DNA of 64,000 nucleotides. Origin: Dehalococcoidia bacterium (lineage in GTDB: Bacteria > Chloroflexota > Dehalococcoidia > Lucifugimonadales > UBA3495). The position numbers were made by a program, and so were the translations under genes. The notes below the pieces were generated by a model. It searched no databases, was not told where the DNA came from, and saw only the letters and a program-made list of their open reading frames with translations. Within the stretch, counting starts at the first letter, position 1, and the number at the start of each line of letters is the position of its first letter. The stretch is from NCBI GenBank assembly GCA_022450395.1, contig JAKUQE010000012.1, positions 2,810 to 66,809 of the forward strand. The letters run 5' to 3'. Below, piece after piece: positions 9,715 to 23,587 of this stretch.

Positions 9715-10580
9715 AGAGAAACGGGCCCAGGGATGGACCCGCTTTGGTCATCCAGGCCGCCCTGAAGAAACAGGGTCAACAGGGCGTTGAACTCGTCGGC
9801 TTTCTCCATGTGGGGCCAATGCCCGCACTGAGGAAAGGTGCGTACCAAGCATTGGGGGATCGCCTCTTTTATCCTACCGGCGTGGCTTACCGGGATGATA
9901 ATGTCCTCTTCTCCCCAAAGGCACATCAGAGGAGAAGACACTTGAGGCAATCGATCAAGAACCCGCCATCGCCGGCGAAGCCCCAGGAGGTTAATGCTGG
10001 AGCGGATCGAGCGGAGGGTGGATCTGGTGGAGCCGGGCAAAAACTGGACACGGGCCATTTCGGTCAGCACCTCGTCGGGTATCGAAGACGGCTCATGAAA
10101 AACTCGCTTGTTCATACCCATCAGGCTGTATATCCAGCGCTGGAAGAGGAACTCCCCTAAACCGGGCACAGACATCAAACGTAACACCCAAGAAACCTGG
10201 CGGCCGATTCCTCCGGGAGCGACCAGCGCCAAGCGGCCGGTTTTCTCCGGATTCTCAAGAGCGAACAGCGCGGCCACCAGTCCCCCGGCTGAGTTACCCA
10301 CCAACGAAGCCCTCTCTACCCCCAAGGCGCGGAGAAACTGTCCGGTGAATTCGACGGCGTTGCGGGGGCCATAGTCCAGAGCATCTGGCTTTTCCGAGTC
10401 ACCGTGGCCGGGCAGGTCTGGGGCCAGAACCGTGAACCCCGCGTTGGCTAGGGGCTCAATATTTCGCCGCCAGGTGTCCAAGGACGAACCCAATCCGTGC
10501 AACAGCAACACCACCGGCCCTTGCCCGGCCTCCACGTAGTGGATATTGACCCCGTTAAGGGCGATTGTCTTGTGCTCCAA
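9711..10580 (-). CDS. alpha/beta hydrolase
   Basis: HGLGSS oxyanion region, nucleophile elbow GNSAGG, C-terminal CGHWPH. Confidence 0.85.
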   Translation of the reverse strand: MEHKTIALNGVNIHYVEAGQGPVVLLLHGLGSSLDTWRRNIEPLANAGFTVLAPDLPGHGDSEKPDALDYGPRNAVEFTGQFLRALGVERASLVGNSAGGLVAALFALENPEKTGRLALVAPGGIGRQVSWVLRLMSVPGLGEFLFQRWIYSLMGMNKRVFHEPSSIPDEVLTEMARVQFLPGSTRSTLRSIRSSINLLGLRRRWRVLDRLPQVSSPLMCLWGEEDIIIPVSHAGRIKEAIPQCLVRTFPQCGHWPHMEKADEFNALLTLFLQGGLDDQSGSIPGPVSL

Positions 10581-14854: not shown

Positions 14855-15334
14855 ATGTTACTACAGCGTTGGGACCCATTATTCGACTTCAGGCGAAGGC
14901 ACTACACCACGGATCGTTTCGTGCGCGGATTTCCCCAGGCCGCGAATGGCGGGGGAATCAAGAAGTGGTCCATAGCCTTGGACGCCGTTGAGGAGGACGA
15001 CAAACTGGTCGTTCGCGCCTCTTTGCCCGGAATCGCTCCGGAGGAGATTAAAGTAACCATTGAAGACGGCGTGCTCACCATTGACGGTGAGACCAAGGTC
15101 GATGAGGAAGGAAAGGTAGGTAACTACCTGATCCGGGAGCGCCGCACCGGCTCGTTCCACCGCGCCATGCGTCTACCCGACACGGTGGACGTCGATCAGG
15201 CGGAGACGAACTACGATGAGGGCATCCTGACCGTCGCCTTTCCCAAGGTTGAGTCCAAGCGAGCCAGACAGCTCACCGTTACCAGCGGGAAGGCCGTAAC
15301 CTCCGGCCAGGAGCCGAAGAGCGACAAGAAGTAA
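14855..15334 (+). CDS. Hsp20/alpha-crystallin small heat-shock protein
   Basis: ACD-like core (LVVRASLPGIAPEEIKVTIEDGVLTIDGE...FHRAMRLP). SD AGGAGG at 14839-14844. ATG 14855 has better spacing than 14846. The track start 14780 would lie at the predicted TSS. Confidence 0.9.
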   Translation: MLLQRWDPLFDFRRRHYTTDRFVRGFPQAANGGGIKKWSIALDAVEEDDKLVVRASLPGIAPEEIKVTIEDGVLTIDGETKVDEEGKVGNYLIRERRTGSFHRAMRLPDTVDVDQAETNYDEGILTVAFPKVESKRARQLTVTSGKAVTSGQEPKSDKK

Positions 15335-15438: not shown

Positions 15439-15657
15439 ATGGTAACTCTAGACGTTAGACCCAAAGACGAAGCAGAAATAAATTCAGAAGCAACCGAACC
15501 GGTGGACATTGCCATGGAAGAACCAAACGTGACGAATAAAGGTGGTGGCGAGAATTCCACCTGGTTTTATTCGATGCCGTTTCCAGGCGTGCGCTACTAC
15601 TCTTTCGGCCGGCCGGATCCAGTCAAAACTCCGGACAAGGCAGCCGCGGGGCACTGA
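15439..15657 (+). CDS. small hypothetical protein (72 aa)
   Basis: Consensus SD AGGAGG 7 nt upstream of ATG 15439. No family recognised. The longer track ORF (15358) starts inside the terminator. Confidence 0.45.
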   Translation: MVTLDVRPKDEAEINSEATEPVDIAMEEPNVTNKGGGENSTWFYSMPFPGVRYYSFGRPDPVKTPDKAAAGH

Positions 15658-15693: not shown

Positions 15694-15740
15694 TTAATGA
15701 CACTGGGGCCGCCGGCTGACTGCTTGAGGGAAAGAATACT

Positions 15741-15805
15741 TGGGTGGCCGGACCACCCAAAAAAAATAGGAGGGGAGTGTTAACACTCCCCTCCCTTCGT
15801 TTTCC
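15741..15805. terminator. bidirectional terminator: hairpin TGGGTGG/CCACCCA, A8 run, 26-nt perfect palindrome GGAGGGGAGTGTTAACACTCCCCTCC, T-rich tail
   Basis: Palindrome at 15769-15794, flanked by A8 (15759-15766) and cttcgttttcc. On the minus strand it reads hairpin + TATTTTTTTT. Confidence 0.6.
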
Positions 15806-16137
15806 TGGGGAACTCCGAAAGAGATAAATAAACCGCGGAGTCCCCCGTGAGGGAGGCACCCTGGGGGTCGGGCGCCTACGCTTGGGGAGGCGGGGATACA
15901 TACTAAGATGCCAGCCGGAGCGAGTCCGCTGTTCCACTCCTCCGTCAAACTATACGGTTCCCAAAAGCATATGGATTTACCTACAGGGACCTAAATCGAT
16001 GAGTTTTGTCCCTATCTGCCCATGAAGTCGCGGCCCAGTTCCGGTCATGGAGGACCGATACGCGGTTGAGTGTTGATCCAGTAGGTGCTAAAATTCTATC
16101 AGCCACCTTAGGGTGCGCTTTGTACCTGGCCTCACGT

Positions 16138-16212
16138 TCCCGAGTAGCTCAGCGGTAGAGCGGGCGGCTGTTAACCGCTAGGTCCGAGGTTCGAATCCTC
16201 GCTCGGGAGCCA
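16138..16212 (+). tRNA. tRNA-Asn (anticodon GTT), CCA encoded
   Basis: Cloverleaf folded by hand: acceptor TCCCGAG/CTCGGGA, anticodon loop CTGTTAA, T-arm CGAGG-TTCGAAT-CCTCG. Confidence 0.95.
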
Positions 16213-16214
16213 AA
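16168..16214 (+). repeat. 47-nt direct repeat, copy 1 (3' half of tRNA-Asn from the anticodon loop); att-like
   Basis: 46/47 identical to 17734-17780. Confidence 0.9.
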
Positions 16215-16215
16215 A

Positions 16216-16470
16216 AACTCGTAAAATGATTTCCATCAACCGAAGGATAATCCCAAAGTCGATACTGTCTCCGAACAGGGTTCACGATGACACGGGTGTA
16301 TACGTTTTGGACATCCGCGGAAGTGAGCAAGGCACCGAACCGCCGGATTGGAACGTTAAAGTTGAGGGCGTGTCGGATGTGGTGCGGCCGGGGCCCGGGT
16401 ATACGCTTCAGTAATCCAGCAGCGACGACTACCCGGACTTGACGACAGCGGAGGTCGAGATTCAGGGCAG
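16216..16470 (-). pseudogene. tyrosine recombinase (integrase) C-terminal relic
   Basis: The ORF 16178-16525 translation ..RVVVAAGLLKRIPGPRPHHIRHALNFNVPIRRFGALLTSADVQNVYTRV.. resembles the integrase catalytic end (HxLRH...LLGH....YTHV), with H replaced. The N-terminal two thirds are missing. Confidence 0.5.
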
Positions 16471-16486
16471 GGCTGTTAGCCACCGG

Positions 16487-16515
16487 CCGAGAAGCCGGGT
16501 GATTTAGGGACAGCG
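16487..16515 (+). repeat. 29-nt direct repeat copy A (CCGAGAAGCCGGGTGATTTAGGGACAGCG) containing a hairpin
   Basis: 28/29 identical to 16558-16586, with a 42-nt spacer. Confidence 0.8.
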
Positions 16516-16557
16516 TCGAAACCAATCAGGTCGAAGTCCCGGGTGGTCAGGCATCAC

Positions 16558-16586
16558 CCGAGAAGCCGGGTGATTTAGGGATAGCG
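16558..16586 (+). repeat. 29-nt direct repeat copy B, with perfect hairpin CACCCG-agaagc-CGGGTG
   Basis: See copy A. Confidence 0.8.
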
Positions 16587-16603
16587 AGAAAGATGGACGG
16601 GGC

Positions 16604-16631
16604 TTGCCTTTCGGGTACAGGCGACTACAAT
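16604..16631 (+). promoter_or_regulatory. candidate promoter TTGCCT-N16-TACAAT for the 3-ORF cassette
   Basis: Hexamers read directly. SD TAGGAGGAG follows, before ATG 16659. Confidence 0.5.
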
Positions 16632-16658
16632 GACCGGGTTATCTAGGAGGAGCTGGCA

Positions 16659-16997
16659 ATGGCAGACGACGACCCAACAGTAACACAGCCAATTCAGAGA
16701 GGGGCTCTTATTAACGCTCGTGGTAGATGGACCGGCGGAGCAGAACTTCCCCTATTGTTCGCCAACCAACTATGGGCCGCAAACTTCGGCCCGCACTTTG
16801 AATTAACTTTCGGGCATAATGAATTGCCATACGAATTAATTACCCCTGAGTTGGTAACAAAACTGGAAGAAGAAGGGGTAGAAATCAAGGCGATTTCAAG
16901 GGTTGCAGTTGGTCCAGATGAACTTGAGGCCATGATCCAGATACTTGCCGGCGTCCTGCAACAGTGGAAGGATAGGAGACCGAACGATGCCAGATGA
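16659..16997 (+). CDS. hypothetical protein (112 aa), cassette ORF1
   Basis: Strong SD. ..LLFANQLWAANFGPHFELTFGH.. is reminiscent of DUF3467-type proteins (from memory, weak). Confidence 0.6.
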   Translation: MADDDPTVTQPIQRGALINARGRWTGGAELPLLFANQLWAANFGPHFELTFGHNELPYELITPELVTKLEEEGVEIKAISRVAVGPDELEAMIQILAGVLQQWKDRRPNDAR

Positions 16998-17481
16998 ACA
17001 ATTCGCGATTATGTCAGGCTCCACAGATCGACTTCCCAGACCTTATTGGCTCCCGGACGCAGGTCATTGGAACCTAGGCGACGTTGGCGATCGAGAGTTT
17101 CAATACAATGTGCTCGAACGTGGGGGCGTCGTGATTCTGGGTGGCGAAATATCTGGCACAGTAATAGCAGGCAGCGGCGAGATAAATATTCGCTATGCTC
17201 CTGTACCTCGTTACGCTTTGCAGAACGAAGTCGAAGCACTCTACGAGAGAATAGCAGCGCTTGAAGCGCAGGCGATCGCCGAACCAGAGCCTCTACGGGA
17301 GATCCCGAAAGACCAAGCGCGGGAAGAAATAAGAGCACTGTTTAGCGAAGGTGGGATTATATATATGTCCGATGTCGCTGATCGCTTAAACTTACCCGAT
17401 GAGCTGGTCGTAGAGATTTGTTTAGAGTTAGAAGGCGCAGGGGAGTTGAATCGTCGTGACAACGCAGTGGACGCTCGGTGA
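16987..17481 (+). CDS. hypothetical protein (164 aa), cassette ORF2; coiled-coil plus possible C-terminal winged helix
   Basis: SD AGGAGA before ATG 16987, overlapping the ORF1 stop by 11 nt. C-terminus IYMSDVADRLNLPDELVVEICLELEGAGEL looks wHTH-like. Confidence 0.6.
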   Translation: MPDEQFAIMSGSTDRLPRPYWLPDAGHWNLGDVGDREFQYNVLERGGVVILGGEISGTVIAGSGEINIRYAPVPRYALQNEVEALYERIAALEAQAIAEPEPLREIPKDQAREEIRALFSEGGIIYMSDVADRLNLPDELVVEICLELEGAGELNRRDNAVDAR

Positions 17482-17656
17482 CGGCATTAAGGGAAATCGG
17501 ATTATTGTTGTAGCTGAGAGTATCCGAAAAGATCCGGGGAAAAGGATCAAACTCACATCGGCGCATACTGGGGAGAGGGCTAGGGCACGCGGTGAGGCCT
17601 ACGCCTATATCGACAAAGCTTTCGAATCCGTGCCTCGCTCCGCGCGGCCTAGATAG
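17456..17656 (+). CDS. hypothetical protein (66 aa), cassette ORF3
   Basis: GTG start overlapping ORF2 by 26 nt. Basic protein. Weak support. Confidence 0.35.
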   Translation: MTTQWTLGDGIKGNRIIVVAESIRKDPGKRIKLTSAHTGERARARGEAYAYIDKAFESVPRSARPR

Positions 17657-17688
17657 CAACATTTATTAACTGATCGGGGTCGAAAACA

Positions 17689-17722
17689 GGAGGGCGCCAG
17701 GCCGTGCCTCCGTTCGGTTTTT
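17689..17722 (+). terminator. hairpin GGAGG...CCTCC followed by gttcggttttt
   Basis: Lies between cassette ORF3 and the right-hand tRNA repeat. Confidence 0.5.
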
Positions 17723-17733
17723 GACGCGGACAA

Positions 17734-17780
17734 CTGTTAACTGCTAGGTCCGAGGTTCGAATCCTCGCTCGGGAGCCAAA
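17734..17780 (+). repeat. 47-nt direct repeat, copy 2 (displaced 3' half of tRNA-Asn); att-like
   Basis: ctgttaactgctaggtccgaggttcgaatcctcgctcgggagccaaa. One mismatch to the intact tRNA. No 5' half present. Confidence 0.9.
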
Positions 17781-18052
17781 CCACCCAACCAATATCTCAT
17801 TAAATCCCGTGATGTTTTTCCTGGTTCTCTTAGCTTCGTACACCTTAGACTAGATACATCTCCAATTCATGTTCAGACCGCTGATGCTTCGCGCCTGACC
17901 AAATCGTTGTCCAAAGCGAATCCGGCGCTGAAGGAACATGGCCAGGCGGGTGAAGTCTGAACCGAATTGTAGATCACCACGTCGCCGCGATGCAGTCGTA
18001 AGAGCAGTCCATCGCGGTGCTCAATCTATGCTTGGGAGTAAACGGGAAAGAA

Positions 18053-18234
18053 TGGACTACAAGTTATTCGACGATCGCACTAAGGAATTTCTTGGCTGGC
18101 TGCGGAACCAAGGATTCCCGGCGGCAGGTAATATCATTTCCTGGAAAGGAAGAAATCGGAAGTTGACGGACGCGGAAGTACAGAAGACAACCCAAACTCT
18201 CAGTGCCGCGATCGTCTTCGCTCGGGAGATTTAG
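18053..18234 (+). CDS. hypothetical small protein (60 aa)
   Basis: ATG 18053 within track ORF 17938-18234. Low-GC region. Weak SD. Confidence 0.3.
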
Positions 18235-18423
18235 GGTCAATATAACGGCGGCGAACACGCCTTAATGGCTGGTATAGTCCAGGCACAAATATCGTAGAGC
18301 GTTCGATAGACAGTCGCGGGAATCATCTTTATTTCTCTAAAATTACCCTTGATGCCCAGACCCTTGCCATTCCCGCGCCCACTAGATAGACTCGGCTCAT
18401 AACAATTTAGGAGCCTTTATCGA

Positions 18424-19425
18424 ATGGCAGAGCAGATCCATCCCAATATTGTTGCCCGGACTGTTGGAAGAGAATCGGTGCTAACCGTAGTCGGCGCCGC
18501 ACCGGACGCTAGGGGGCCGTGGTCTTTCATAACTGGGATACCGAACCCCGGCTTCGATATGGTTGGGCCTCCTGCCCAATACCTGTCGGTGGCTGCTTGG
18601 GCCGCTTGAACCGTGGTCACGGTGGTAGGCGTGGCCTACCGTGGCAACATCGCCCTGGAAGACATCATGGTCGATTTTGAGGTGGAGGCGGTTGAGCTTC
18701 CCAATGCGATCGGGTTCGGTGTTAGGGAACTTGTCACCCTGAAAGGCCGGATATCGGAGCCGGAGCGGGTCCGGCTTGAGCGGGCTTCCCGGTATTGCCC
18801 AGTTGGACAGGCTCTGACCAAGGGTTCCATGGAGATCGAGGATGAGATTCGATGGAGCAATGGTGAGGTGGCCTCAGCCTCTCCATTGACGGAATCCCTT
18901 CCCCCTTCGGACTGGGCTCTACCCGCCATACCTACCGGATCCGTCCATGGCCGATACCTTCTGGACACAAAAGAGTACGACGATGAAGGGAAGATGGAGC
19001 ACGAAGGGGAGGCCAAGATTTCCATCCAATGCCAAAACCTGACTCGGACAAGCCGCTGGACCATACTCGGCGGACATAGCTCTGAAGGCTGGGTAACGCC
19101 ACCGTTTCCCTTGGGCCACGCTGGGTGGGCAGCATCGACCGTTTCTACATTGAGCCGTCTGTTGCCCCAAGGGACGGAAGACGCAGATGGCCTCAGTGTG
19201 GAGTTGTATATGGCGGCCGGTGGCGGCGGTAGGGGGCAGTCCCAGTCCAACGCCGCCGAGGGCGTGGTGGCTCGCCGCGGGGTAACGCGCCGGATAATGG
19301 TGCCCGGAACTCCCAGCACCACCCCGATCGAGGCGGTACAAGCGGCGCTTCAACGCGACCCGATAACACTGGCCTACCTGAACGGGGGCGTACTTTTACA
19401 TGACGAGGTGGTGGTAGAGTCGTAG
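18424..19425 (+). CDS. OsmC/Ohr-like hydroperoxidase-family protein with in-frame TGA (18607-18609) at the first catalytic Cys position; candidate selenoprotein with a second degenerate OsmC-like half
   Basis: Track ORFs 18424-18609 and 18613-19425 share one frame. SD AGGAG precedes ATG 18424 and none precedes GTG 18613. The joined text is ..PPAQYLSVAAWAA[TGA]TVVTVVGVAY..RASRYCPVGQAL... A hairpin lies downstream. Confidence 0.7.
18618..18643 (+). promoter_or_regulatory. SECIS-like hairpin CAC-ggt-GGTAGGC-gtg-GCCTACC-GTG
   Basis: 7-bp upper stem, GTG loop, 3-nt 5' bulge, 3-bp lower stem. The loop lies 21 nt after the TGA. Confidence 0.5.
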
Positions 19426-21298: not shown

Positions 21299-23587
21299 TT
21301 AGATGATATCCGTAGGGACCTGCATCCCTGGGGAGGCCAGGCTGCTCTGATAAGCTGCAAGGGCCTCTTTGGGCCTTCCGTTGCGTAATTGATGCTGGCC
21401 CATGTAGCCCCATCCGGCGCGGACACCGAGCCAATTGGCAATATTACTGTGTATCACCAAAGCTGTCCGAAACTTCTGAACAGCGTCTTCGTCATTCCCC
21501 TCCAAGGAGGCCACCAACCCAAGCATCTGCAGAGTGTTGGCCTCCCCCAGCCGGGCCTGGATTTCCCGGAAAATGGGCAGGGCTTCATCGTAGTGAGCGC
21601 GGGCGTCGCCCAAGCGGTCTTCCCGCAGGTCCAGGTCTCCCAGGGCCTGTAACGTGTTGGCCTCCCCCAGCCGGGCCTGGATTTCCCGGAAAATGGGCAG
21701 GGCTTCATCGTAGTGAGCGCGGGCGTCGCCTAGGCGGGCCTCCCGCAGGTCTAGGTCACCCAGGACCTCTCGGGAACTGGCCTCGAGAAATCCCCATTCT
21801 TGTTCAGTGGCGTCCCGGACGGCGTGCTCCAAGAGTTGCCTGAGCAGGGCGGTCTCCCACCTATAAGCGGCGAACTGAGCAACGTGGACGATAAACTCGG
21901 CCCTGCTTCGGGGGAGCGAATACTCGACTCCAGCGGGGGCGCCCGCATCTTTCACCATCACGCGAGCCGTGCGTTCCAGGTTGGTTGCCTCTTGGTGGAA
22001 AGCAAGAATAGCGTCGGTGGACCGGTTGTCAGTCACCAATCGACTGAGGTTCCCTGGGAAGGCAGCCATCACGCTAAAGAACCTGGCCTCATGTTCTCCT
22101 AGTTCCTCTCCGGATTCTTGCCTCACCACCTCCCGCATCAGGCGGTGCATGGAGAAGCGCCGGCCGCCGGCCTCACCTTCAGAAGCTACGAGCACCGAGC
22201 GCTGGCGCAACCGGTTCAGTTCACGTACCGCAGTGCTCTTGTCCTCGGGGTCAAGTTCGGCGACTTGGAGGAGCAGTGACTGGGGACCACCGCTCGCGGG
22301 TTCGAAGCAGGCTACGGAATAAAGCAGCCCACGGGCTGCGTCACCCAGGCCTCGCAGACTGAGTCTGAGCACCGCGTGCACGATGCGGTGGCCACGGGCC
22401 TCTTCGGCGCTCAACTCACGGTCGCCGATGGATTCGGGGACCAGGGCTTCCAATTGGTGGCTCTCATCTGGGTACATTTCCAACCACGACGAGACGGACA
22501 AATCCTCGGCGGCGATACTAGCGGAGGCCACGTCCACCGCGATGGGCTGGAAGCCCAGCATCTCGCACAACTGGTCTATCTCATCTTCCTCGTCCCGCCA
22601 TCGCTCCGGTCCCAAGGGGGATCGGAAAACGCCCCGCGCCTGTTCTGGGGTAAACTCTTCCAATCTCACTGGGTCTGCCCCGGTGACTTCCCGCAGTAGC
22701 GCTTCGTCTCTGGAGGTGACGATGGTTCGGCATAAGCCCCCTGGGTTGGGCAACAGCATCCGGACATCCGCTGGGTCGTCGGCGTTGTCGAGGATGAGCA
22801 GTCCTTCGTAGCGGGAAAGGGCCTCCCTAAGCACTCTGCTGACCTGGGCATCGGTGTGGTCCGGGTCGACCTGGAAGCCGAGGGCCAGCGCTAGGTCGGT
22901 CATGGCGCCTCGCACCCGGCCTGCGTCTAAGGAAACGTAGAGGGTTTTTCCGGGGCGGGTCTGCCGGGCATACCGTACCGCTAGCAAGCTTTTGCCGCCG
23001 CCACCGCCGCCGCCGATACCCACCACTTCTTCTGAGGAGAGCCGCCGGTCCAGCTCCGCAAGCTCGGGCCGGTCCACCCGGTAATGTTCGTCGGAGGGTA
23101 GTGATAGGGCAGGCGAGGAGGCGGGTCCAGACTGAGCGGCGGAGTGTGCTCCGGTGCTCAATACGTCGAGGGTTTGGACGGCCAAGGTTTCTAAGCGGCC
23201 CAGCGTTTCACCCTGCTCCGCAGCGAGGGAATTTGCCGCCAAGGTTGCGTCATCGGCTTGCGCCATGCGGGCGGCATCCCTAGCATTGAAATACCGGACG
23301 AGGGCCTCGGAGTCGGCAGACAAAACTGACCGGCAAACAGGCGCTATGAGCCGCGACATCCGCATTATGATGTCAAGAAGGGGTGGATTTGACTGGGTGT
23401 AGCTTGCCTTTAAGTCGGCGATGGTACCGAATCCATTCAGGAAATCGGCGAAACCGGGATCCCGGAGCAGGTTGACTATGCGGTGCCATTCCTCACTGCC
23501 CGCGGAAGTCCCGGAGCTGCTTCCATAATGGTTGATGACTCTCAGGGCGGCATTAGGGTAGGCTGCATTGAGCTTGCGCCGCACCAA
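21299..23587 (-). CDS. STAND (NB-ARC-like) P-loop NTPase with unassigned ~190-aa N-terminal domain and C-terminal TPR array
   Basis: Walker A GIGGGGGGGKSLLA and Walker B LLILDNADD. TPR units LGDARAHYDEALPIFREIQARLGEANTLQ. TTG/GTG start with AAGGA SD. Confidence 0.8.
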   Translation of the reverse strand: MVRRKLNAAYPNAALRVINHYGSSSGTSAGSEEWHRIVNLLRDPGFADFLNGFGTIADLKASYTQSNPPLLDIIMRMSRLIAPVCRSVLSADSEALVRYFNARDAARMAQADDATLAANSLAAEQGETLGRLETLAVQTLDVLSTGAHSAAQSGPASSPALSLPSDEHYRVDRPELAELDRRLSSEEVVGIGGGGGGGKSLLAVRYARQTRPGKTLYVSLDAGRVRGAMTDLALALGFQVDPDHTDAQVSRVLREALSRYEGLLILDNADDPADVRMLLPNPGGLCRTIVTSRDEALLREVTGADPVRLEEFTPEQARGVFRSPLGPERWRDEEDEIDQLCEMLGFQPIAVDVASASIAAEDLSVSSWLEMYPDESHQLEALVPESIGDRELSAEEARGHRIVHAVLRLSLRGLGDAARGLLYSVACFEPASGGPQSLLLQVAELDPEDKSTAVRELNRLRQRSVLVASEGEAGGRRFSMHRLMREVVRQESGEELGEHEARFFSVMAAFPGNLSRLVTDNRSTDAILAFHQEATNLERTARVMVKDAGAPAGVEYSLPRSRAEFIVHVAQFAAYRWETALLRQLLEHAVRDATEQEWGFLEASSREVLGDLDLREARLGDARAHYDEALPIFREIQARLGEANTLQALGDLDLREDRLGDARAHYDEALPIFREIQARLGEANTLQMLGLVASLEGNDEDAVQKFRTALVIHSNIANWLGVRAGWGYMGQHQLRNGRPKEALAAYQSSLASPGMQVPTDII
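21534..21730. repeat. 120-bp tandem duplication inside the TPR region (77 nt identical: 21534-21610 = 21654-21730)
   Basis: Lines 21541-21600 and 21661-21720 are identical. Flanks are similar with mismatches. Confidence 0.9.

Follow-up and report, generated by a model that had tools for sequence, protein, structure and literature searches.

Integrative elements exploiting the host Xer (IMEX) use the host XerCD at dif. Cis-mobilizable elements (CIMEs) were defined in the Streptococcus systems comprising integrative and conjugative elements (ICEs) along with integrative and mobilizable elements (IMEs), where accretion at a common attachment (att) site is also described (Guedon et al. 2017, PMC5704250). 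At tRNA genes, a block of identity starting from the anticodon loop is the classical signature of a tyrosine integrase (Williams 2002, as cited in the Islander paper, PMC4383910), and the Islander paper (PMC4383910, online November 2014) states that no serine integrases with tRNA genes as targets were known. In Dehalococcoides, tandem islands at ssrA are driven by the serine recombinase DsiB, and some of them are without integration modules (McMurdie et al. 2011, PMC3146451). Here we describe a small element (hereafter, the mini element) at the tRNA-Asn(GTT) gene of a Dehalococcoidia bacterium, within a 64,000-nt stretch of contig JAKUQE010000012.1 (hereafter, the window). We judge, with a probability of roughly 60%, that it is an integrase-less, att-bounded, CIME-like element that relies on an integrase supplied in trans, probably a tyrosine integrase. 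Window positions are used throughout, and L-numbers designate the related contigs and loci compared with the window.

An insertion at tRNA-Asn with precise empty sites

The mini element lies directly 3' of an intact tRNA-Asn gene and ends in a second, orphan copy of the 3' part of that gene.

16138-16212 (+): intact tRNA-Asn(GTT), its 3' half being the attL copy of the repeat (ARAGORN; Rfam RF00005, 69.8 bits)
16160-16214 (+): left direct repeat, attL side, with a 47-nt core at 16168-16214 (repeat search, family D1)
17726-17780 (+): right direct repeat, attR, an orphan 3' part of tRNA-Asn with its core at 17734-17780 (repeat search)
16215-17780: integrated element of 1,566 bp without a recombinase gene, made up of attachment-site DNA and a three-gene operon
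Empty-site attB junction in relatives: full tRNA gene, then ...GGGAGCCAAACCACCCAACC

The initial annotation of this interval, made from the sequence without database searches, had proposed an integrative element bounded by attL/attR copies of a 47-nt tRNA-Asn half, and ARAGORN, Rfam and the repeat search agree with it on the duplication. The two cores are identical at 46 of 47 positions, with the lone mismatch at 16176/17742, and they extend, as had been read, from the first base of the anticodon loop (CTGTTAA) through CCA plus AA. Weaker similarity 5' of the core lengthens the repeat to 55 nt with 93% identity, and a 32-nt core of the repeat occurs twice in the window (0.00 occurrences expected, 100 shuffles). 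The first 17 nt of the right repeat (GCGGACAACTGTTAACT) are the element's imperfect version of the anticodon-stem region, and the right copies in the window and in two diverged variants described below (L036 and L042) carry GACAAC where GGCGGC would be expected. ARAGORN called no tRNA in the orphan copy at 17726-17780. The G+C content of the interval is 0.531 (0.515 in its ORFs, whose lower G+C the annotation had noted) compared with 0.583 for the whole window.

Related contigs were recovered through exact copies of two flanking proteins, Hsp20 (14855-15334) and the 61-amino-acid product of 18424-18609. Two contigs of the same species (L015 and L024) are 99.4% identical to the window in the left flank and 96.3% in the right flank, and those of a sister lineage (L025-L031) are about 93% and 91% identical, respectively. 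In both groups, the left alignment stops at 16214 and the right one starts at 17734, so that the two overlap on a single 47-nt copy; the tRNA gene, whose sequence in L024 is the same as in the window, is directly followed by sequence beginning at window position 17781. The relatives thus lack exactly one unit of 1,566 bp, and a search for an empty tRNA-Asn site, which had been suggested as the check on the integrative reading, gave the expected result. An intact tRNA gene with a displaced cognate fragment on the same (+) strand and a precise attB in relatives are both among the features on which Islander relies. Because close relatives have this precise empty site, the 1,566 bp are a genuine site-specific insertion with attL- and attR-like tRNA 3'-half copies at its ends. 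The presence of the element is polymorphic between close strains. Two further contigs (L017 and L022) terminate exactly at 16214, the pattern that filled and empty alleles mixed in one sample would give, which is circumstantial.

Absence of a recombinase gene

No recombinase family was detected among all ORFs of 16215-17733 in searches against Pfam (E ≤ 10) and PHROGs, and the element proteins matched no recombinase, relaxase or known defence family in Pfam, PHROGs or PADLOC. PHROGs returned weak matches to families of unknown function alone, and the three cargo ORFs were negative in PADLOC. The L036 and L042 variants likewise had no recombinase match. Islander requires that the interval contain an integrase gene, and none was found in 16215-17733.

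16178-16525 (-): open frame misread as an integrase relic, not a gene; it carries ..HHIRHA..LLTSADVQNVYTRV..

This frame had been taken for the C-terminal relic of an integrase, and a phage-integrase profile search with its translation had been proposed as a check. The translation matched zero Pfam families at E ≤ 10, including that of the phage integrases, and its lone PHROGs match (E = 0.076) was to a family of unknown function. When compared by tblastn with the serine recombinase from the neighbouring site (see below), the match consisted of 13 tRNA-encoded residues alone. A profile match with R-H-R-Y in register, as expected of a PF00589 member, was not obtained, and the spacing between HxxRH and 'LLxx', read from the sequence, is about 10 residues too short. 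In L042-A the frame is broken by a 5-nt indel, with 71% amino acid identity against about 95% DNA identity, and in L036 it is alignable over about 100 nt at most. The relic does not survive these comparisons: because there is no family match, the frame is broken and its amino acid sequence is poorly conserved, 16178-16525 is an accidental open frame over a conserved non-coding module.

Conserved non-coding ends

The non-coding DNA of the mini element is located at its two ends, with the operon in between.

16215-16512 (+): conserved non-coding left-end module, presumed P' arm of attP, ending in a hairpin and then GATTTAGGG
16470-16515 and 16541-16586 (+): two 46-nt units, each with a hairpin and the motif CCGAGAAGCCGGGTGATTTAGGG (repeat search, family D2)
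17689-17723 (+): terminator-like hairpin GGAGG...CCTCC, then the T-run GTTCGGTTTTTG (read from the sequence)
Predicted attP circle junction (reconstructed): ...GGTTTTTGACGCGGACAACTGTTAAC(C/T)GCTAGG...GGGAGCCAAAAAACTCGTAAAATG

The left module is about 95% identical to L042-A, where the downstream cargo is merely 73% identical, and over its last ~100 nt it shares 90.6% identity with L036, for which the identity of the host flanks is about 78%. No reading frame in 16215-16512 is kept as a protein among the compared variants. The module terminates in the hairpin CACCGGC-CGAGAA-GCCGGGTG. The two 46-nt hairpin units (16470-16586) sit where the conserved module meets the variable cargo, and their motif is found once in L036, once in L042-A and twice in the window type. 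As a structured RNA, the left module matched no Rfam family and had fold z-scores of -1.6 and -0.6; the fold over 16470-16586 (z = -1.6) was not significant. A third match to GATTTAGGG / TCTTCGCTCGGGAG at 18215-18239 was rejected as chance, given that 3 matches with up to 3 mismatches arose in 32 of 100 shuffles, and it falls within a conserved host ORF.

At the right end, the ~45 nt to the left of the repeat and the GACAAC substitution are almost invariant across all variants. The P arm, GCCAGGCCGTGC(C/T)TCCGTTCGGTTTTTGA, has almost the same sequence in the window as in L036 and L042, which elsewhere share 73-78% identity. The terminator-like hairpin region (17689-17725) doubles as this P arm, directly left of the right repeat; it was missed by the automated hairpin scan because its loop is longer than 8 nt.

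A three-gene cargo operon

16604-16631 (+): promoter-like site TTGCCT-N16-TACAAT, 5' of ORF1 (consensus scan)
Within 16644-16652 (+): ribosome-binding site AGGAGG
16659-16997 (+): ORF1, 112 amino acids, a small family with faint likeness to DUF3467
16987-17481 (+): ORF2, 164 amino acids, with a variable N-terminus and a conserved C-terminal half
17456-17656 (+): ORF3, 66 amino acids, with a 26-nt overlap with the end of ORF2

The three coupled small ORFs reported by the initial annotation overlap and are conserved as proteins in L036 and L042. ORF1 has 80% and 69% amino acid identity to its counterparts in L036 and L042, respectively, and ORF3 has 65% and 64%, while ORF2 is 57% identical in the diverged variants. 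Both promoter hexamers are kept in L042-A, with a 15-nt spacer, amid diverged sequence. Because of this protein-level conservation and the retained promoter, ORF1-3 are real genes with their own promoter and a terminator-like hairpin.

The ORF1 family comprises 54 representative clusters, and DUF3467 matched 4 of 42 family members (best E = 0.0019). The AlphaFold2 model of ORF1 (predicted local distance difference test score 88.9) has a beta-beta-alpha-beta-alpha fold, for which no match was found in PDB. ORF2 has just 6 homologue clusters, and all those with usable context belong to elements of this type, at the same Hsp20-linked tRNA-Asn gene. In the alignment and the predicted model, its C-terminal half is a long helix followed by a three-helix winged-helix domain; the best Foldseek matches were the winged-helix DNA-binding domains of FapR, DeoR, MarR and Z-alpha, with non-significant E-values and root-mean-square deviations of 1.1-1.6 Å over ~45 residues. 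We speculate that ORF2 could act at the hairpin/GATTTAGGG units, either to repress the element or as a directionality factor. ORF3 had a weak PHROGs match (phrog_9909, E = 0.0019).

Diverged relatives and the maintenance of the element

Two loci carry diverged forms of the mini element. L036 has a 2,363-bp variant at the same tRNA gene, with extra small ORFs and a right repeat that is 84% identical to its left repeat; the flanks are about 78% identical to the window, and flanks and genes together range over about 78-82%. L042, from the Chloroflexi metagenome-assembled genome (MAG) GCA_022574525.1, has a 1,479-bp variant between flanks 95.8% identical to the window. The right repeat of this variant is followed immediately by another element's left end, with 84% identity over 185 nt. 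The two make up a tandem array, in which each unit has its own tRNA half carrying the GACAAC arm. Family-wide, the two ends (the ~300-nt left module and the ~45-nt right arm) and the operon are conserved, and the cargo varies. Conserved ends, exchangeable cargo and tandem stacking form the pattern that would be expected of an element maintained via its attachment-site DNA.

The interval had been called a degraded miniature element. The miniature part of this description holds, whereas 'degraded' is questionable, as the compact form without a recombinase recurs in other lineages, diverged, and in tandem; the mini element is more suggestive of a small element of a stable kind than of random wreckage.

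The two tRNA-like copies in direct orientation are also what an old tandem duplication of tRNA-Asn would give, had the second copy lost its 5' part with ordinary, immobile host genes lying in between. We consider this extremely improbable. The second copy breaks off abruptly at the anticodon-stem region, where it meets an arm that all variants conserve and that the second tandem unit bears as well; relatives lack exactly one unit; and the cargo has a lower G+C content and genes that are almost absent from databases outside this site.

A more credible, though still doubtful, explanation is that the mini element is a fixed relic, which entered once in an ancestor, lost its integrase and has been immobile since then. 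Empty sites would then result from RecA-type or slippage deletion between the 47-55-nt repeats, and cargo differences from homologous exchange of the ordinary kind, by way of the conserved ends and flanks. A perfect repeat of 38 nt with copies 1.5 kb from each other, as found here, suffices for spontaneous deletion. Against such a relic stands the L042 tandem array, in which the elements are 84% identical and each has its own tRNA half and GACAAC arm. The non-coding ends are also far better conserved than cargo or flanks (90.6% versus 78% in L036), which argues for selection on the ends, and the compact architecture without a recombinase has been retained in three lineages.

Several observations weigh against an integrase-less element that is still moved in trans, and the first two of them also favour the fixed relic. 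The L036 element has diverged about as much as its flanks (~78-82%), and therefore long vertical residence fits. Scans of viral contigs, phage and plasmid records and GTDB representative genomes recovered no cognate integrase or parent element. The P arm and hairpin-motif patterns had no match in GTDB representative genomes or viral contigs, the element DNA had none in phage or plasmid records, and the element proteins had none in phage records. No excised circle or attP junction was seen, so present mobility is inferred at most, and the empty sites could reflect homologous recombination between the repeats instead of excision. In addition, the position of the crossover is not mappable because the repeat copies are nearly identical.

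The mini element came into tRNA-Asn through site-specific recombination, and the tRNA 3' half that it brought along restores the gene (attL). The displaced 3' copy, joined to the conserved P arm of the element, has stayed behind as attR. Both integration and excision would need an integrase supplied in trans by another element. As the block of identity begins with the anticodon loop, this helper is most likely a tyrosine integrase whose crossover lies in that loop or close to it; the partial similarity 5' of the loop fits an attP core and supports the same type of helper. The element may also be lost via recombination between the 47-nt repeats, and its cargo may be exchanged between the conserved ends. 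In one population variant, the orphan repeat and the native flank probably still work as a landing site for a serine-recombinase element, as described in the next section.

A broader proposal would be that the mini elements are an active family of integrase-less 'att cassettes', the tRNA-targeted counterpart of integron cassettes or IMEX. Each unit would consist of attP DNA (the left module, the hairpin, GATTTAGGG and the P arm) together with a small operon of regulatory or cargo genes; such cassettes would co-opt an integrase that is encoded elsewhere in order to spread, to form tandem stacks and to exchange cargo, and their orphan tRNA halves would be extra landing pads for unrelated serine-recombinase elements. 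We put this forward tentatively and regard it as unlikely.

Serine-recombinase elements at the same tRNA gene

L004 is identical to the window through 17778 and then continues into a large-serine-recombinase gene on the minus strand (L004:10327-11970), whose last 13 codons (WLPSEDSNLGPSS and the stop) are encoded by the orphan tRNA half. This copy is truncated and lacks the catalytic N-terminus. Homologues with 74-77% identity lie directly against an intact tRNA-Asn gene at the Hsp20 locus (L011/L012), and a further one (L014) at a YajQ-linked tRNA-Asn gene. A scan of representative genomes with the recombinase gave 47 loci; about 20 of the closest 39 (L043-L081) abut tRNA-Asn, in Chloroflexota, Omnitrophota, Elusimicrobia, Latescibacterota, Hydrogenedentota and others; among more distant members, the adjoining gene is tRNA-Met, -Gln, -Glu or -Val. 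The metagenome scan yielded three short or distant loci and no more.

Alignment of the junctions of this recombinase clade revealed a conserved P' arm, GGTTCGTATGnnACCAGnn|TGGCTCCCC (arm motif GGTTCGTATGnnACCAG). In copies away from a tRNA gene (attP-like), the sequence continues as the palindrome TGGCTCCCC-GGG-AGGGGAGC, which places the crossover of the recombinase in the last ~10 nt of tRNA-Asn. No long repeat of the tRNA half was found within 10 kb of these elements.

These elements raise the question of whether the mini element is a satellite mobilised by a large serine recombinase that targets the same tRNA-Asn (L004, L011-L014). The truncated gene copy directly adjoins the mini element in L004, the clade abuts tRNA-Asn in ~20 of 39 scanned genome loci from several phyla as well as in L011-L014, and Chloroflexota offer a precedent in DsiB with its tandem islands at ssrA. 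However, the P' arm motif of the clade is absent from the left end of the mini element (16215-16240), the clade crosses over near the acceptor end of the tRNA and leaves no long tRNA-half repeat, no homologues of ORF1-3 were found in the recombinase-clade elements, and the recombinase of L004 is without its catalytic part. Examined as a possible DsiB-like element, the window had no recombinase remnant other than the tRNA-encoded residues and no arm motif, and its repeat is 47-55 nt rather than ~10 nt. With arm motif, crossover position and repeat length all differing and no common cargo genes, the serine recombinase was rejected as an unlikely helper, and we hold the satellite explanation to be highly unlikely. 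L004 would instead represent a serine-recombinase element that used the orphan tRNA half and the native flank as its attB, and it is not evidence that the serine recombinase moves the mini element.

Some observations on the recombinase clade stand apart from the mini element. In a distant Dehalococcoidia MAG (L074), the serine recombinase gene at the DnaJ-Hsp20-tRNA-Asn locus is in fragments about 7 kb apart (L074:2846-3146 and 10001-10321), the form that a genuine recombinase relic takes at this site. Two predicted viral contigs of 20-23 kb from IMG/VR (L094 and L096) have relatives of the recombinase (~40% identity) at their extreme ends, which suggests that at least some recombinase-clade elements are proviruses. 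The breadth of this tRNA-Asn-specific clade may deserve more attention than the mini element itself.

The flanks and neighbouring loci

17781-18423 (+): native chromosomal flank, outside the element; directly after the tRNA gene in L024 and L025-L031, and present in L036

The sequence beyond the right repeat (17781-18420) had been considered a possible older remnant, a suggestion that has to be withdrawn. It is found in all relatives, with or without the element, at 96%, 91% and ~76-79% identity, and contains a conserved 60-amino-acid ORF (18052-18234; 95%, ~90% and 77% amino acid identity).

Further downstream, the ORFs of 61 and 270 amino acids at 18424-19425 are one OsmC-like frame split by an in-frame TGA at 18607-18609 (…SVAAWAA-TGA-TVVTVVG…), presumably at about the place where OsmC proteins carry a cysteine. 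L024, L025 and L036 (the last ~78% identical) all keep the TGA, the flanking frame and a hairpin just downstream (GGTAGGC-GTG-GCCTACC), and the TGA is a candidate selenocysteine codon. This conserved UGA may likewise merit more attention than the mini element.

A second strain-variable region (21299-23587, -) lies a few kb from the element. It encodes a tetratricopeptide repeat (TPR) protein of 762 amino acids, with a faint NB-ARC match, and an adjoining 46-amino-acid ORF. Neither is in the ~91-93%-identical L025-L031, where MsrA is directly followed by a luciferase-like gene, and in L015/L024 the TPR protein is shorter (625 amino acids).

Upstream of the tRNA gene, strong back-to-back terminator-like hairpins (15739-15803), a 22-nt palindrome with A and T runs, are located 3' of a 72-amino-acid ORF (15439-15657) and 5' of the promoter-like site of the tRNA gene (16066-16094). 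Two contigs differ in their upstream context. In L002 (L002:8733-8807, approximately window 16134-16214), the element and the normal right flank are joined to another upstream region with YajQ and a major facilitator superfamily transporter, and the 5' acceptor strand of the tRNA (TCCCCGA) no longer pairs with the 3' strand (CTCGGGA), which suggests that two tRNA-Asn loci have recombined or that the assembly is chimeric; in another species (L014), the YajQ-linked tRNA-Asn hosts a serine-recombinase element. In L010 (L010:1-33), a third, different sequence lies directly 5' of the tRNA gene and mini element, just upstream of the position corresponding to 16138, and it could represent one more context of tRNA-Asn or an artefact of the contig end.

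Significance and comparison with known systems

The mini element is a small and fairly ordinary 'hitch-hiking' integrated element with three small genes in uncultured Chloroflexota, and as it stands a modest addition to known biology. The annotation is corrected in that the integration event is real, and neither an integrase remnant nor an adjoining older remnant is present. For the poorly studied Chloroflexota, the results document a compact element that has no recombinase, whose ends are conserved and whose cargo is exchangeable, and tRNA-Asn in this lineage serves two mechanistically different kinds of integrating element, one with a repeat from the anticodon loop and the other with a crossover near the acceptor end. 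Should a helper integrase come to light, the element would amount to a minimal natural cassette for integration, with ~400 nt of att DNA, which could aid the engineering of these uncultured lineages.

Like IMEX, the mini element encodes no recombinase and would depend on one acting in trans; its site is a tRNA gene, unlike the dif site of XerCD. It resembles the tRNA islands of tyrosine integrases (Williams 2002; Islander, PMC4383910) in having an intact tRNA gene with a displaced 3' fragment in direct orientation, an identity block from the anticodon loop to the 3' end and a precise empty site in relatives. The sole Islander feature that it lacks is the integrase gene within the interval, and at 1.57 kb it is far smaller than typical tRNA islands. 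With the ssrA islands of Dehalococcoides, it shares the phylum, tandem arrays 3' of a gene for a small RNA, the 3' end of which recurs as direct repeats, and units without an integration module; in the neighbouring elements here, the recombinase gene also overlaps the repeat. Those islands, however, have repeats of 20 bp, and their serine recombinase crosses over in the T-loop of tmRNA, whereas the mini element has a repeat of 47-55 nt from the anticodon loop of tRNA-Asn and no serine-recombinase arm motif.

The comparison with CIMEs covers both structure and arrangement: the mini element has attL and attR at its borders, carries no genes for integration or transfer, and takes part in tandem accretion at the same target gene end, with the serine-recombinase gene in L004 and with a second mini element in L042. 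It differs in that no parent ICE or IME was found for it, that its host is a member of Chloroflexota and its target tRNA-Asn, and that the neighbour in L004 has another recombinase type and crossover point, which makes cis-mobilisation by this neighbour unlikely. Unlike a one-off decay product, the mini element belongs to a family with a compact form and strongly conserved ends.

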